Shown: positions 7,418 to 19,864 of the stretch, piece by piece | Position numbering within the stretch: the stretch's first letter is position 1 | Layout: each line of letters starts with the position of its first letter | DNA from: Escherichia coli | GTDB lineage: Bacteria; Pseudomonadota; Gammaproteobacteria; Enterobacterales; Enterobacteriaceae | Length of the DNA stretch: 64,000 nucleotides | Assembly (NCBI RefSeq): GCF_003018255.1 | Contig: NZ_CP027440.1 | Direction: 5' to 3' (one strand) | Notes under the pieces: generated by a model | Seen by the model: only the letters and a program-made list of their open reading frames with translations | What the model was told of the DNA's origin: nothing | Database searches by the model: none | Position numbers and translations under genes: made by a program

Positions 7418-7498
7418 CGGGCGGATAAGGCGTTTTTGCCTCATCCGCCGCTCTGTACACAATGCCTGATGCGACGCTGGTGCGTCTTATCATACCTA
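7418..7498. repeat. REP-like palindromic elements downstream of proX
   Basis: Two GC-rich imperfect palindromes (gcggataaggcg...cgccgcatccg type and gcctgatgcgacgctggtgcgtcttatca) in the proX-ygaY spacer. Confidence 0.6.
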
Positions 7499-11907: not shown

Positions 11908-13446
11908 ATGCAACAGCAAAAACCGCTGGAAGGCGCGCAACTGGTCATTATGACGATTGCGCTGTCACTGGCGACATTCATGCAGGTGCTGGACTCCACC
12001 ATTGCTAACGTGGCGATCCCCACTATCGCCGGGAATCTGGGCTCATCGCTCAGCCAGGGAACGTGGGTAATCACTTCTTTCGGGGTGGCGAATGCCATCT
12101 CGATCCCGCTTACCGGCTGGCTGGCAAAGCGCGTCGGGGAAGTGAAACTGTTCCTCTGGTCCACCATCGCCTTTGCTATTGCGTCGTGGGCGTGTGGTGT
12201 CTCCAGCAGCCTGAATATGCTGATCTTCTTCCGCGTGATTCAGGGGATTGTCGCCGGGCCGCTGATCCCGCTTTCGCAAAGTCTATTGCTTAATAACTAC
12301 CCGCCAGCCAAACGCTCGATCGCGCTGGCGTTGTGGTCGATGACGGTGATTGTCGCGCCAATTTGCGGCCCGATCCTCGGCGGTTATATCAGCGATAATT
12401 ACCACTGGGGCTGGATATTCTTCATCAACGTACCGATTGGCGTGGCGGTGGTGTTGATGACACTGCAAACCCTGCGCGGACGTGAAACCCGCACCGAACG
12501 GCGGCGGATTGATGCCGTGGGGCTGGCACTGCTGGTTATTGGTATCGGTAGCCTGCAGATTATGCTCGACCGCGGTAAAGAGCTGGACTGGTTCTCATCA
12601 CAGGAAATTATCATCCTTACCGTGGTGGCAGTGGTGGCTATCTGCTTCCTGATTGTCTGGGAGCTGACCGACGATAACCCGATAGTCGATCTGTCGTTGT
12701 TTAAGTCGCGCAACTTCACCATCGGCTGCTTGTGTATCAGCCTCGCGTATATGCTCTACTTCGGCGCGATTGTTCTGCTGCCGCAGTTGTTGCAGGAGGT
12801 CTACGGTTACACGGCAACGTGGGCAGGTCTGGCCTCTGCGCCGGTAGGGATTATTCCGGTGATCCTGTCGCCGATTATCGGCCGCTTCGCGCATAAACTG
12901 GATATGCGGCGGCTGGTAACCTTCAGCTTTATTATGTATGCCGTCTGCTTCTACTGGCGCGCCTATACCTTTGAACCAGGTATGGATTTTGGCGCGTCGG
13001 CCTGGCCGCAGTTTATCCAGGGGTTTGCGGTGGCCTGCTTCTTTATGCCGCTGACCACCATTACGCTGTCTGGTTTGCCACCGGAACGACTGGCGGCGGC
13101 ATCGAGCCTCTCTAACTTTACGCGAACGCTGGCGGGGTCTATCGGCACATCCATCACCACCACCATGTGGACCAACCGCGAGTCGATGCACCATGCGCAG
13201 TTGACTGAGTCGGTAAATCCGTTCAACCCGAATGCCCAGGCGATGTATAGTCAACTGGAAGGACTGGGGATGACGCAACAGCAGGCATCAGGCTGGATTG
13301 CCCAGCAGATCACCAATCAGGGGCTGATTATTTCTGCCAATGAGATCTTCTGGATGTCAGCCGGGATATTCCTCGTCTTGCTGGGGCTGGTGTGGTTTGC
13401 TAAACCGCCATTTGGCGCAGGTGGCGGCGGAGGTGGTGCGCACTAA
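11908..13446 (+). CDS. emrB: MFS multidrug efflux pump
   Basis: 512 aa from ATG 11908 (MQQQKPLEG); recognised as EmrB. Confidence 0.93.
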   Translation: MQQQKPLEGAQLVIMTIALSLATFMQVLDSTIANVAIPTIAGNLGSSLSQGTWVITSFGVANAISIPLTGWLAKRVGEVKLFLWSTIAFAIASWACGVSSSLNMLIFFRVIQGIVAGPLIPLSQSLLLNNYPPAKRSIALALWSMTVIVAPICGPILGGYISDNYHWGWIFFINVPIGVAVVLMTLQTLRGRETRTERRRIDAVGLALLVIGIGSLQIMLDRGKELDWFSSQEIIILTVVAVVAICFLIVWELTDDNPIVDLSLFKSRNFTIGCLCISLAYMLYFGAIVLLPQLLQEVYGYTATWAGLASAPVGIIPVILSPIIGRFAHKLDMRRLVTFSFIMYAVCFYWRAYTFEPGMDFGASAWPQFIQGFAVACFFMPLTTITLSGLPPERLAAASSLSNFTRTLAGSIGTSITTTMWTNRESMHHAQLTESVNPFNPNAQAMYSQLEGLGMTQQQASGWIAQQITNQGLIISANEIFWMSAGIFLVLLGLVWFAKPPFGAGGGGGGAH

Positions 13447-13454
13447 GGTTGTCA

Positions 13455-13480
13455 AAGGGAGCTGCGGCTCCCTTTTTATT
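13455..13480 (+). terminator. rho-independent terminator after emrB
   Basis: Stem GGGAGC / GCTCCC with loop TGCG, followed by TTTTT. Confidence 0.7.
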
Positions 13481-13703
13481 TGCTCATTTTGCAAACGGTT
13501 GTTTTATCCACTCATTCGGTGTATCTTTTCGCCGCCCCAAACTCTTCCATTCACCATTAACCGGTTCTGAGCATTCGCTCAGGTTGTTAATTCTCTTTTT
13601 CTTTCGCCCTCGCTTTCGCGGGTGATACTCACATTTTTCTTTTAACCCCATAACTCGCACCCTCGCGGGCGTACATTTATTACACACAAAATAATGGATT
13701 ATT

Positions 13704-14411
13704 ATGAATACCCAACGAAAATACGGGAGAACCTGGCATTATCCTTTCTCCCCCGGCACCACCAGCGATGACCGCATTAATGCCGATTACTGGCAGGATT
13801 TACAGGCCATCACGCAATTGGTGCACACAGAAAAACTCGACGGTGAAAATAACTGCCTTAACCGCTACGGCGTGTTTGCCCGTTCCCATGCCGCGCCTAC
13901 GCAGTCGGCATGGACCTATAAAATTCGCCAACGCTGGCAACTGCTGAAAAACGATCTCGGCGATCTGGAGTTGTTTGGTGAAAATCTTTATGCCGTGCAT
14001 TCGATTGAATATCGCGCCCTGGAGCAGGATTTTTATCTGTTTGCCGTTCGCTGCCAGGATATGTGGCTGAGCTGGGAAGAGGTGCAGTTTTACGCCGCTC
14101 TGTTTGATTTCCCCTGCGTTCCCGAAATCTCCGGCCCGCAACCGGGGAATGATGAAAAAAGCTGGCAACGTGATTTTCTGGCGCTGACCAATGCGCGCGG
14201 CGCGTTCGATCCCTGGGATACGCAAACCGGGCAACCCTGTACGCTGGAAGGCATTGTCAGCAGGAATCGTGATGCGTTTTCCGTCGCTGACTTTTCGCAT
14301 AACGTCTTCAAGTATGTGCGCAAAAATCATGTCAAAATCACCGTCCACTGGAAACGACACTGGCAACGGGCGCGGATGGCCCATGAGTTCGATTATGGAG
14401 AACAGTCATGA
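13704..14411 (+). CDS. putative ATP-dependent polynucleotide (RNA) ligase-like nucleotidyltransferase
   Basis: 235-aa ORF; motif I KLDGEN (K44, nt 13833-13850), motif III LFGEN (about residue 91), motif IV EGIVSR (182-187), motif [10 protein letters not shown] (203-211), in ligase order and Rnl2-like spacing; call rests on motif reading only. Confidence 0.62.
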
Positions 14412-15520
14412 TTTGGCAGCTTACCGACGACAAACGCTGGTCGGCGCTACGTCAGCGTTTTAGCTGGGTTGAGGAGATGCATCACACGCCACAAGACCCG
14501 GAGCATCATGGTGAAGGTGACGTCGGCGTGCATACCGAAATGGTGCTGAACGCCCTCGTTACTCAGCCAGAATTCCAGCAACTCCCCGCTCAACAGCAGG
14601 AAGTTTTATGGGCGGCGGCGTTATTGCATGATGTTGAAAAGCGCAGCACTACCGTGCAGGAAAACGGACGTATTCAGTCGCCTGGCCATGCTCGTCGGGG
14701 CGAACTGACGGCCCGACAAATTTTATGGCGCGATATCCCAACGCCGTTCGTGCTACGCGAGCAAATTGTTGCGCTGGTGCGTCTGCATGGGTTACCGCTA
14801 TGGTTACTGGAACGTCCGGAACCGGAGCGTTTGCTGCTCACGGCTGCAATGCGCATCGACACGCGTCTGCTCGCTTTGCTTGCTCGTGCCGATCTGCTTG
14901 GTCGCCAAAGCCCGGATCAGCAATCAATGCTGGAACGCATCGATCTGTTCGAGCTGTTTTGCCATGAGCAACAATGCTGGGGAAAAATGCGCCCGTTCGT
15001 TTCTGATTCCGCACGCTGGCACTACCTGACTCATGAGCAAAGTTCTCCTGATTTTGTTCCCTGGGAGGCTGAACCTTTTGAGGTTATTTTGCTGTGTGGC
15101 TTACCGGGTATGGGCAAAGATCGCTATATCAGTGAACAGTGCCAGGGAATGGACGTTATCAGCCTTGATGATATGCGGCGGCGAATCAATGCCAGTCCGG
15201 ACGACAAAACCGCCACCGGGCGTATTGTGCAACAGGCAAAAGAAGAGGCGCGCGTTTTTTTACGCCAGAAAAAGCCGTTCATCTGGAATGCAACGAACAT
15301 TACCCGCCAGCTGCGCAGCCAGCTCATCAGTCTGTTTACGGCTTACGGCGCACGAGTAAAAATCGTTTATCTGGAAGTGCCATGGGCGCAATGGAAGCAG
15401 CAAAATGCCAGACGCGAGTATGCAGTTCCTGAAGCGGTCGTGATGCGGATGGCCTCAAGGCTGGAAGTTCCTCAACCTGATGAAGCACATAGCGTGGAAT
15501 ATCGGATGACTGACAGGTAA
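14408..15520 (+). CDS. putative bifunctional HD-domain phosphoesterase / P-loop polynucleotide kinase (HD-Pnk-like end-healing enzyme)
   Basis: 370-aa ORF whose ATG overlaps upstream stop (ATGA); N-terminal His cluster H33-H34, H42 and HD dyad H74-D75; C-terminal Walker A-like GLPGMGKD (nt 15098-15121); domain assignment by motif only. Confidence 0.6.
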
Positions 15521-15525
15521 CAAAA

Positions 15526-15552
15526 GCCGGGCGGTGTTTTCACCAGCCCGGC
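15526..15552 (-). terminator. rho-independent terminator at luxS 3' end (possibly bidirectional)
   Basis: Stem GCCGGGC / GCCCGGC around a 13-nt loop; on the minus strand followed by TTTTG; lies between convergent ORF 14408-15520 and luxS. Confidence 0.65.
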
Positions 15553-15570
15553 CTCTTCTGCTTAAACTGA

Positions 15571-16086
15571 CTAAATGTGCAGTTCCTGCAACTTCTCTTT
15601 CGGCAGCGCCAGTTCTTCGTTGCTGTTGATGCGCACGTCACGTTCCAGAATGCTACGCGCAATATCCTGCGCTTCCTGCAACGAGTGCATCTGGTAAGTG
15701 CCACACTGGTAGACGTTCAGTTCCGGGATCTGATTCTGATCCTGCACTTTCAGCACGTCTTCCATTGCCGCTTTCCAGGCATCAGCAACACGCTGCTCAT
15801 CTGGCGTACCAATCAGACTCATATAAAAACCGGTGCGGCAGCCCATTGGCGAGATATCGATAATCTCTACACCATTACCGTTAAGATGGTTACGCATAAA
15901 ACCAGCAAACAGGTGCTCCAGGGTATGGATCCCTCTTTCTGGCATCACTTCTTTGTTCGGCACGCAGAAGCGCAGATCGAACACGGTGATTGCGTCGCCA
16001 TGCGGGGTGTTCATTGTTTTCGCCACCCGAACTGCAGGCGCTTCCATCCGGGTATGATCGACTGTGAAGCTATCTAACAACGGCAT
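15571..16086 (-). CDS. luxS: S-ribosylhomocysteine lyase (autoinducer-2 synthase)
   Basis: 171-aa ORF; recognised as LuxS (HTLEHL metal-binding motif). Confidence 0.95.
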
Positions 16087-16154: not shown

Positions 16155-16227
16155 TGAAAGACGCGCATTTGTTATCATCATCCCTGAATTCAGAGATGAA
16201 ATTTTGGCCACTCACGAGTGGCCTTTT
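16155..16227 (+). ncRNA. micA: MicA (SraD) small regulatory RNA
   Basis: Matches remembered MicA sequence GAAAGACGCGCAUUUGUUAUCAUCAUCCCUGAAUUCAGAGAUGAAAUUUUGGCCACUCACGAGUGGCCUUUUU; divergent from luxS; 3' hairpin plus U-run. Confidence 0.85.
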
Positions 16228-19137: not shown

Positions 19138-19214
19138 TGGTGCATCCGGGAGGATTCGAACCTCCGACCGCTCGGTTCGTAGCCGAGTACTCTATCCAGC
19201 TGAGCTACGGATGC
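19138..19214 (-). tRNA. argQ: tRNA-Arg (anticodon ACG)
   Basis: 77 nt; reverse complement matches remembered E. coli tRNA-Arg(ACG) incl. CCA; gene name by position is tentative. Confidence 0.9.
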
Positions 19215-19277
19215 ATTGGGAAAATTTATTTTACTGCTGATATTGATATCGCTACTAAAGCCATATCAAGTAAGAGA

Positions 19278-19354
19278 TGGTGCATCCGGGAGGATTCGAA
19301 CCTCCGACCGCTCGGTTCGTAGCCGAGTACTCTATCCAGCTGAGCTACGGATGC
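19278..19354 (-). tRNA. argZ: tRNA-Arg (anticodon ACG)
   Basis: Identical 77-nt copy; name by position tentative. Confidence 0.9.
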
Positions 19355-19416
19355 ATCGGGAAATTTATTTTACTGCTGATATTGATACCGCTACTAAAGC
19401 CATATCAAGTAAGAGA

Positions 19417-19493
19417 TGGTGCATCCGGGAGGATTCGAACCTCCGACCGCTCGGTTCGTAGCCGAGTACTCTATCCAGCTGAGCTACGGATGC
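19417..19493 (-). tRNA. argY: tRNA-Arg (anticodon ACG)
   Basis: Identical 77-nt copy; name by position tentative. Confidence 0.9.
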
Positions 19494-19557
19494 ATCTGGA
19501 AACTTACTTTACTGCAGATTTTTTGATACCGCTACTAAAGCCGTATCAAGTAAGAGA

Positions 19558-19691
19558 TGGTGCATCCGGGAGGATTACTCGCCTTGCGGCTCGCCCTTCG
19601 GGCCGTTGCTAAAGCAACGTTATCCTCCCTGGTGCCTGCGGTTATTACCGCCACCTCTTCCATACCTTCATCGCTGAAGGTACGTAGAATA
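19558..19691 (-). repeat. tRNA-Arg 3'-end-derived hairpin repeat (pseudo-tRNA fragment), copy 2
   Basis: Starts with TGGTGCATCCGGGAGGATT then diverges; same inverted-repeat core (cgcccttcgggcc ... atcctccc) as copy 1. Confidence 0.7.
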
Positions 19692-19768
19692 TGGTGCATC
19701 CGGGAGGATTCGAACCTCCGACCGCTCGGTTCGTAGCCGAGTACTCTATCCAGCTGAGCTACGGATGC
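19692..19768 (-). tRNA. argV: tRNA-Arg (anticodon ACG)
   Basis: Identical 77-nt copy; name by position tentative. Confidence 0.9.
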
Positions 19769-19771
19769 AAA

Positions 19772-19864
19772 TGGCGGTGAGGCGGGGATTCGAACCCCGG
19801 ATGCAGCTTTTGACCGCATACTCCCTTAGCAGGGGAGCGCCTTCAGCCTCTCGGCCACCTCACC
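19772..19864 (-). tRNA. serV: tRNA-Ser (anticodon GCU)
   Basis: 93 nt; reverse complement matches remembered tRNA-Ser(GCU) with long variable arm and CCA. Confidence 0.88.

Follow-up and report, generated by a model that had tools for sequence, protein, structure and literature searches.

What do two adjacent genes between emrB and luxS of Escherichia coli do, and how long have they been there? The question is raised by a locus in a 64,000-nucleotide stretch of contig NZ_CP027440.1 (assembly GCF_003018255.1), referred to in the following as the window. The local gene order is emrR–emrA–emrB, open reading frame 1 (ORF1), ORF2, convergent luxS, micA and gshA. Taken as a whole, the sequence comparisons and the analogy with characterized systems make it probable that the pair is a two-gene heal-and-seal operon of the type described in Runella, which would repair RNA damaged by ribotoxins and which would be an ancient resident of the emrB–luxS junction. 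This is an already described kind of operon, and the E. coli pair is a further instance of it. The coding features are:

13704–14411, plus strand: ORF1, 235 amino acids, predicted RNA ligase
14408–15520, plus strand: ORF2, 370 amino acids, predicted HD-Pnk
14397–14411, plus strand: coupling junction, with a GGAG Shine–Dalgarno sequence within the 3′ end of ORF1 and an ATGA overlap

ORF2 is a predicted HD-Pnk

The closest characterized relatives of ORF2 are found in Runella. The gene set published for R. slithyformis comprises Tpt1, MTase-HIT, ligase and HD-Pnk, with the ORF of the ligase overlapping that of HD-Pnk (PMC6097658). Our comparison partner was the orthologue from Runella sp. P0127, which was chosen by its gene set and is not the R. 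slithyformis protein itself. ORF2 was 48% identical to this HD-Pnk over its full length (E = 3e-135). The Runella sp. locus holds Tpt1, MTase-HIT, ligase and HD-Pnk, with one oppositely oriented extra gene between MTase-HIT and the ligase. Like ORF2, the Runella HD-Pnk has an N-terminal HD domain and a C-terminal P-loop Pnk domain and is ≈367–370 residues long; and, as in E. coli, a ligase of ≈235 residues is encoded immediately upstream by an overlapping ORF. Compared with Runella, the E. coli locus is a bare two-gene version that lacks a linked Tpt1 or MTase-HIT, and it sits at a fixed core-genome junction behind a conserved leader that is specific to the Enterobacteriaceae.

The C-terminal domain of ORF2 matched Pfam AAA_33 (E = 7e-32). 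When a profile of the ORF2 family was searched against the PDB, it matched the kinase of Clostridium thermocellum Pnkp (6e-10) and T4 Pnk (8e-5), as well as PSTK, while residues 63–188 matched class II CCA/A-adding enzymes. The NCBIfam models gave a CCA-enzyme HD region (E = 1e-5), HDIG (1e-3) and a weak match to the bacterial Pnkp kinase, and a Pfam HD domain is recorded for many ORF2 homologues. An AlphaFold2 model of ORF2 had a predicted local distance difference test score (pLDDT) of 93. Superposed by Foldseek on the C. thermocellum polynucleotide kinase (4gp6), it gave a template modelling (TM) score of 0.73 and a root mean square deviation of 2.7 Å; the kinase domains of both C. thermocellum Pnkp and T4 Pnk have the fold of the ORF2 kinase.

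The residues expected at both active sites were conserved. The HD ligands H34, H74-D75, H94, H127 and D162 were invariant in 36 ORF2 homologues, as were, in the kinase domain, the P-loop GxxGxGK237(D) and residues D254, R257, R303 and R336. These data predict that ORF2 consists of an N-terminal HD phosphoesterase and a C-terminal P-loop 5′-OH polynucleotide kinase, which is the HD-Pnk architecture. The present annotation, ATP-binding protein or AAA family ATPase, could be changed to HD-Pnk. One peculiarity of the family concerns the P-loop (residues 231–238, GLPGMGKD), in which the Lys is followed by an Asp or Asn that is nearly invariant family-wide, Runella included, where Ser or Thr is usual.

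ORF1 is a predicted minimal RNA ligase

ORF1 matched the Pfam family RNA_ligase (PF09414; E = 4e-28), and NCBIfam holds no model for it. Among 35 homologues, motif I of the KxDGxN type (T42-E43-K44-x-D46-G47-E48-N49) was invariant, together with F91-x-E93-N94, E182-G183-x-V185-x-R187 and K203-x-V205-R206-K207; the labels of motifs III, IV and V were assigned by pattern. Lys44, in EKLDGEN, is the predicted AMP acceptor. The ratio of non-synonymous to synonymous substitution rates (dN/dS) of ORF1 was 0.04–0.08.

Sequence and profile searches of the PDB with ORF1 returned only hemocyanin and picornavirus VP2, matches that we consider spurious, and a fold search was preferred. The AlphaFold2 model of ORF1 (pLDDT 87.5) was compared with the PDB by Foldseek, and the 29 best matches, at E ≤ 1e-3, were all RNA ligases or Trl1. 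The best folds were those of the Naegleria RNA ligase, T4 Rnl2, the ligase domain of fungal Trl1 and archaeal Rnl3, with TM scores of ≈0.5 and identities of 15–20%; the Naegleria and T4 Rnl2 domains were found at Foldseek E values of 5e-7 to 1e-5. Both the Naegleria gruberi enzyme (Rnl5) and T4 Rnl2 share with ORF1 the lysine motif KxDGxN and the pattern of motifs III, IV and V; ORF1 lacks the N-terminal domain of the former and the C-terminal domain of the latter. Indeed, ORF1 corresponds to the nucleotidyltransferase domain only, without any of the accessory domains that define the classes Rnl1–5. Because of this lack, the modest TM scores and identities and the absence of a PDB sequence match, we did not assign ORF1 to any of these classes. 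It is best described as a predicted minimal ATP-dependent RNA-ligase-like nucleotidyltransferase.

The combination of kinase, phosphoesterase and ATP-dependent ligase for ends with 2′,3′>P and 5′-OH follows the same logic as T4 Pnkp with Rnl1 and the bacterial Pnkp–Hen1/Pnkp1–Rnl–Hen1 systems. The phosphoesterase differs, being an HD domain in ORF2, a DxDxT enzyme in T4 and calcineurin-type in bacterial Pnkp. Unlike in those systems, the ligase is a separate minimal polypeptide with no accessory domains, and there is no Hen1 methyltransferase.

Overlap and predicted coupling of the two open reading frames

In the sequence, the ATG of ORF2 (14408–14410) and the TGA of ORF1 (14409–14411) share the tetranucleotide ATGA, which confirmed at 14408–14411 the overlap claimed in the original prediction. 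A GGAG sequence lies at 14397–14400, 7 nucleotides 5′ of the ORF2 ATG. We regard this start codon as the real one, because M1 and W3 of ORF2 are invariant among homologues from two phyla.

The arrangement was then compared across the family by taking one genome per species, which yielded 80 loci from Enterobacterales, Bacteroidota and one member of the Neisseriaceae. A ligase homologue lay on the same strand directly upstream of the HD-Pnk in 79 of the 80, and in the majority of these the two ORFs overlapped. The two ORFs overlapped or were no more than 26 nucleotides apart in every one of 84 co-oriented loci (a set that includes five from E. coli); the junction was ATGA in 19 of these and a 17-nucleotide overlap in 21. 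In the family loci, the Shine–Dalgarno sequence is embedded in the ligase gene's 3′ end. A 4-nucleotide overlap by itself is common in operons; the overlap seen here is more than chance, since the tight coupling of ligase and HD-Pnk is conserved across two phyla. We infer from the overlap that ORF2 is translationally coupled to ORF1. The view of the locus as a co-expressed pair, proposed earlier on the basis of the ATGA, is thus supported by the family-wide conservation of ORF coupling, and fixed or equal stoichiometry, or a physical complex of the two proteins, might follow from it.

Distribution and age of the pair

The original prediction had taken the locus for a compact chromosomal indel rather than a mobile island and had proposed mapping the emrB–luxS junction across the pan-genome. 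When this was done, the pair was found in 999 of 5,426 complete E. coli genomes (≈18%), always as a single chromosomal copy at the emrB–luxS site. A K-12-type junction was present in 4,312 genomes, and ≈110 had other states. In K-12, emrB and luxS are 63 bp apart. Homology to the window stops at 13447, one base past the emrB stop codon, and resumes at 15566, five bases before the luxS stop codon, and the ≈2.1 kb of the window that lie in between are replaced in K-12 by a spacer of ≈57 bp that is unrelated and contains a terminator of its own. By this comparison, the empty allele of K-12 is a replacement and not a clean deletion.

Nothing in or around the pair pointed to mobility. No integrase or transposase was annotated within ≈6 kb on either side (RefSeq annotation of strain 2014C-3338, to which the window is 100% identical), and comparison of the junctions showed no terminal inverted repeats, direct repeats or target duplication, only short chance repeats, as had been noted from the sequence of the window. 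Its base composition had also been described as similar to that of its surroundings, and this was borne out: the GC content of the pair is 52–54% and that of third codon positions (GC3) 55–59%, both matching the neighbors, and the correlation of relative synonymous codon usage lies inside the range of the flanking genes. The pair occurred on no enterobacterial plasmid, and the plasmid matches obtained were to megaplasmids or chromids of other phyla. With a single copy at one site, native composition and no repeats, the description as a compact indel holds.

The same order, emrB–pair–luxS–gshA, was found in E. albertii, cryptic Escherichia, Citrobacter amalonaticus, Kosakonia, Enterobacter sp., Superficieibacter and three metagenomic enterobacteria. 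C. europaeus has the pair at the same site with one extra gene between it and luxS; in Phytobacter and ENNIH3, emrB lies directly upstream of the pair and luxS falls outside the fetched flank. Serratia and the Morganellaceae carry the pair at other sites. Nucleotide identity to other genera was 79–81% for the ligase gene, 71–73% for the HD-Pnk gene and 79–85% for emrB, luxS and gshA. Relative to E. albertii, synonymous divergence (dS) was 0.41 and 0.24 for the pair and 0.28–0.34 for the flanks, and the dN/dS of the pair was 0.04–0.17. In a neighbor-joining tree of HD-Pnk, the Enterobacterales were monophyletic and their internal order roughly followed taxonomy.

Since no fewer than six further Enterobacteriaceae lineages have the pair at the same site, and since its dS is close to that of the flanks, a K-12-like absence most likely represents loss and not insertion. 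Most likely, the pair is an ancient emrB–luxS resident of the Enterobacteriaceae that was lost, or recombined to the empty allele, in most E. coli, and in the ≈18% of complete genomes that retain it the substitution ratios indicate purifying selection. In pan-genome studies, it would illustrate an accessory gene pair of long standing that has been lost repeatedly, as opposed to a new gain.

Individual strains departed from these two states. In the bovine E. coli isolates XJ34 and XJ6-3, the insertion sequence (IS) IS200C lies in the leader directly after the T-tract of the emrB terminator (equivalent to ≈13481–13482; locus L005:2350–2808), where it comes to lie between emrB and the putative promoter region. 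In E. coli 0H23 (L006), IS30 truncates emrB in a K-12-type junction. Direct repeats or IS remnants at the junctions had been named as grounds for doubting the indel; no such repeats and no transposase gene were found there, and the insertions in other strains leave the reading of the window intact. E. coli Ecol_542 (L098) has a multi-kb deletion from an upstream major facilitator superfamily transporter gene to the middle of the ligase gene, with HD-Pnk intact. A further locus (L007, from a GTDB representative labelled E. coli, strain SCPM-O-B-8794) had dS values to the window of 0.05 for HD-Pnk, 0.26 for the ligase and 0.36 for emrB, a mosaic divergence that suggests recombination inside the locus.

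The emrB terminator and the conserved leader

The interval between emrB and ORF1 contains the following features, of which those in the leader are based on an alignment of 15 Enterobacteriaceae leaders and on RNAalifold:

13454–13482, plus strand: intrinsic terminator of emrB, with a stem-loop at 13454–13475 (9-bp stem, GCGG-type loop) followed by TTTATTT
13499–13527, plus strand: sigma-70-type promoter candidate, with −35 TTGTTT at 13499–13504, a 17-bp spacer and −10 TATCTT at 13522–13527
13528–13703, plus strand: conserved leader, a putative 5′ untranslated region of ≈170 nucleotides
13566–13583, plus strand: leader hairpin 1, followed by GTTGTTAATTCTCTTTTT (GTTGTT and a T-rich run) and called terminator-like by the scan
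13605–13624, plus strand: leader hairpin 2
13656–13671, plus strand: CG-rich element of the leader
immediately 5′ of the ORF1 ATG, plus strand: conserved AATAATGGATTAT

The emrB terminator was called by the terminator scan, with a folding energy of −15.7 kcal/mol (z = −2.8), and its stem is kept between genera through compensatory changes (GGGAGC/GCTCCC versus GGGATC/GATCCC). The hairpin predicted earlier at this point is thus real, its stem-loop being placed at 13454–13475. The pair had also been credited with a 257-bp leader between this hairpin and ORF1; that length applies if one counts from the stop codon of emrB to the ATG of ORF1 (13447–13703), whereas counting from the hairpin gives ≈221–228 bp.

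The promoter-like block was nearly invariant in Escherichia, Citrobacter, Salmonella, Kosakonia, Phytobacter and ENNIH3, and the Enterobacter/Superficieibacter group had TTGCAA, 17 bp and TATTCT or TATTAT in the same place. Blocks of the leader were more conserved than the coding sequence. In the proposed pairs, 95.5% of the alignment cells were paired, compared with 24–45% in slid controls. The leader is single-copy and was confined to genomes that bear the cassette; outside the Enterobacteriaceae, its motif was absent upstream of the pair. No Rfam family matched within 13300–15700 even at E ≤ 1, and reading the leader by eye for sigma-54, sigma-32 and LexA-type motifs revealed none that was conserved across genera. 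The pair is probably transcribed from its own promoter, 3′ of the emrB terminator, via a conserved and structured leader. This leader is probably regulatory and might act as an attenuator.

Two further observations concern the sequence of the leader region. A GC-rich block, CGCCGCCCC, at 13528–13539, directly 3′ of the putative −10, is conserved across genera; it resembles the discriminators of stringently controlled promoters, and RNAalifold pairs it with GGGCG at 13667–13671. In four Morganellaceae loci (L014, L015, L023 and L044), the Enterobacteriaceae leader blocks are replaced by another motif, ATGTAATACCAAC(A/T)CTTGA, ≈100 nucleotides 5′ of the ligase gene.

Linked repair genes and phage homologues

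The family spans Bacteroidota and Proteobacteria, with identities of 50–59%. RtcB neighbored the pair in 12 loci, PrfH in 7 and Tpt1 in 4 (Serratia, Bacteroides, Prevotella and Runella). In Serratia and Bacteroides, rtcB (TIGR03073, the type associated with a release factor) and prfH (TIGR03072) are found immediately upstream of ligase–HD-Pnk in the same orientation, and in Parabacteroides, Prevotella and others rtcB and/or prfH are nearby. This amounts to a four-gene RNA and ribosome repair cluster that occurs in both Proteobacteria and Bacteroidota (L011:3480–7116 from Serratia oryzae, L012, L019, L026, L042 and L063). No Tpt1, RtcB or PrfH was found in the 64-kb window.

RtcB2–PrfH has been shown experimentally to repair ribosomes cut by colicin E3 (PMC9304027, PMC9223846). 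A search of one PrfH paper for HD-Pnk, Pnk and polynucleotide kinase found none of these terms, and a literature search on the emrB/luxS/RNA ligase family protein locus returned nothing relevant. RtcB2–PrfH resembles the present pair in that both consist of accessory RNA-damage repair genes with overlapping ORFs, and the two modules are linked in Serratia and Bacteroides. Their chemistries are unrelated, RtcB joining 3′-P and 5′-OH ends directly with the use of GTP, and the modules are unlinked in the E. coli window.

Homologues were also present in phages. An uncultured 462-kb phage (LR756500.1:24519–26287; H86 and H100) has ligase and HD-Pnk genes that are adjacent and in the same order (identities of 38% and 34%, respectively). 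Both genes also lie on a single strand of seven large IMG/VR contigs (among L100–L108), 1–3 kb apart with other genes between them in six and ≈100 nucleotides apart in the seventh. Several jumbo phages of Caulobacter, Agrobacterium and Sinorhizobium have a gene for the ligase only. The phage copies bear on the family and not on the emrB–luxS locus.

Proposed function and alternative explanations

The following sequence of steps can be proposed. Transcription would start at a promoter of the pair itself, 3′ of the emrB terminator, and pass through the conserved leader, and the ATGA overlap would couple translation of ORF2 to that of ORF1. The enzymatic steps are proposed from the domains, the conserved catalytic residues and the published biochemistry of the Runella HD-Pnk. 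Where metal-independent RNases have cut, the HD domain of ORF2 would convert the 2′,3′-cyclic-PO4 or 3′-PO4 to a 3′-OH, and its P-loop kinase would convert the 5′-OH to a 5′-PO4. ORF1 would then become adenylylated on Lys44 and seal the 3′-OH to the 5′-PO4. Most likely, the pair serves to mend tRNA or rRNA that ribotoxins have cleaved, for example colicins, contact-dependent toxins or anticodon nucleases; the gene neighborhoods in other taxa support a role in RNA repair.

Several observations weigh against this interpretation. The N-terminal match of ORF2 to Pfam HD is weak (E = 0.021), and the promoter candidate agrees with the consensus at only 7 of 12 positions and was missed by the scan. 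Compensatory change was found in only three pairs of the leader, so that covariation is thin and an RNA structure is plausible, short of proven. At the junction, the 63-bp spacer of K-12 resembles neither the cassette allele nor any of the loci compared, so that a simple deletion is undemonstrated. HD-Pnk is reported by Munir and Shuman (2017) to act on DNA 3′-phosphate ends as well. Finally, the Runella ligase undergoes self-adenylylation yet failed to seal any of the 3′-OH/5′-PO4 substrates tried (PMC6097658), so that sealing, and the substrate on which it would act, are predictions throughout the family.

A firm claim of leader RNA structure was dropped for the thinness of the covariation. 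It is doubtful, though conceivable, that the leader (≈170 nucleotides, with its terminator-like hairpin) is a new cis-regulatory attenuator within an ancestral RNA-damage-responsive operon whose ligase has a dedicated substrate. Examples of such a substrate would be rRNA or tRNA cut by ribotoxins, handled together with RtcB2–PrfH, or junctions that KptA, the orphan Tpt1 homologue, would process afterwards.

The activity on DNA ends brings up another possibility, namely that the pair repairs 3′-phosphate/5′-OH nicks in DNA, like mammalian PNKP with a ligase. The ORF2 kinase fold does match mammalian PNKP, the fold of the ligase is common to DNA ligases, which ranked lower, and a title in the reference list of PMC6097658 calls HD-Pnk a DNA/RNA end-healing enzyme. 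Yet the best folds for ORF1 were all RNA ligases, in line with its Pfam family; ORF1 has no oligonucleotide/oligosaccharide-binding (OB) or DNA-binding domain; the HD region resembles the HD/body region of tRNA CCA enzymes; and the recurrent neighbors RtcB, PrfH and Tpt1 are RNA-specific. We consider DNA repair unlikely. The failure of the Runella ligase to seal would be accounted for if the reaction were a specialized one, involving a particular end (e.g., a 2′-PO4, later removed by Tpt1/KptA), a ribonucleoprotein substrate such as a damaged ribosome, or modification of an RNA end. The linkage of Tpt1 in 4 loci and of RtcB–PrfH in 7–12, the lack of Rnl1–5 accessory domains in ORF1 and the presence of the fungal Trl1 ligase domain among its fold matches are all compatible with this. 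The same work of Munir and Shuman is reported to have found that HD-Pnk removes 2′-, 3′- and cyclic phosphates alike and leaves a plain 2′,3′-diol; together with the absence of Tpt1, RtcB and PrfH from the window, this makes a specialized reaction improbable.

Two other explanations concern the origin of the locus and its role. Were the pair a recent, horizontally acquired cassette, inserted or recombined into the emrB–luxS junction of certain E. coli lineages, its patchy presence in that species (18%), the spread of the family over Bacteroidota and Proteobacteria at 50–59% identity, the homologous pairs in very large phage genomes and megaplasmids, and the IS elements and extra genes attracted to the junction in some strains and species would fit. 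This is very unlikely in view of the identical site occupied in six or more further lineages of the Enterobacteriaceae, the dS near that of the flanking core genes (also relative to E. albertii), a gene tree that roughly follows taxonomy, native codon usage, the lack of integrase and of terminal or target-site repeats, and the fact that the pair was never seen on an enterobacterial plasmid or in two copies. RNA-repair enzymes do take part in phage–host conflict, as when T4 Pnkp and Rnl1 counter PrrC, and the pair is accessory in E. coli and has homologues in contigs of jumbo-phage size; it could thus be an anti-phage defense or toxin-immunity module instead of serving housekeeping repair. However, no family in PADLOC 2.0 matched either protein at E ≤ 0.01, the neighbors are core genes and form no defense island, a nuclease, toxin or sensor component is lacking, and the long vertical residence is unlike the typical turnover of defense genes. 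We regard a defense role as very unlikely.

A heal-and-seal operon for ribotoxin-damaged RNA is therefore the explanation that we prefer, and the question of the natural substrate and role, left by the Runella work, becomes testable in E. coli. Carriers of the pair include KO11FL, a derivative of E. coli W, and 'clone D i2', of a uropathogenic lineage, so that the operon is accessible in genetically manipulable strains. The natural presence/absence polymorphism at one fixed junction and the rtcB–prfH linkage in other taxa add to its tractability, and both that linkage and the conserved leader merit attention.

The hairpin between ORF2 and luxS

The spacer downstream of the pair contains one further structure:

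15526–15552, strand unassigned: shared hairpin, with a 12-bp interrupted stem, within the 50-nucleotide convergent ORF2–luxS spacer

This hairpin folds with −24.3 kcal/mol on the plus strand and −26.3 kcal/mol on the minus strand. It is followed by a U-tract (UUUUGUU) on the minus (luxS) strand only; the tail on the plus strand is CUCUUCUGCUU, and the terminator scan did not call it. Because of the position of the U-tract, the structure is primarily the terminator of luxS. Our preferred reading is a terminator that is shared but works mainly for luxS and that, acting in both directions, possibly also stops transcription of the pair, though more weakly. The suggestion that the pair is bracketed by terminators was right insofar as both this hairpin and the emrB terminator are real, but the downstream one belongs chiefly to luxS.

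Most of the other genera examined have one strong hairpin in a spacer of 41–62 nucleotides, with unrelated sequences. In E. albertii (L087:5114–5307), the HD-Pnk–luxS spacer is ≈200 nucleotides long and includes a palindromic insert of ≈150 bp that resembles repetitive extragenic palindromic (REP) elements. The spacer in ENNIH3 (L092:3651–5975) holds genes for a 774-residue protein without a Pfam match and a YuaE-family protein, and the extra gene between the pair and luxS in C. europaeus (L093:3861–5228) encodes a Porin_8 protein.

Elsewhere in the window, the Rfam matches were as expected, with MicA at 16156–16227 (plus strand) between luxS and gshA. A match to the REP-derived naRNA4/CssrE was found at 7419–7496 (plus strand), and a cluster of four tRNA-Arg genes and one tRNA-Ser gene at 19141–19864 (minus strand).

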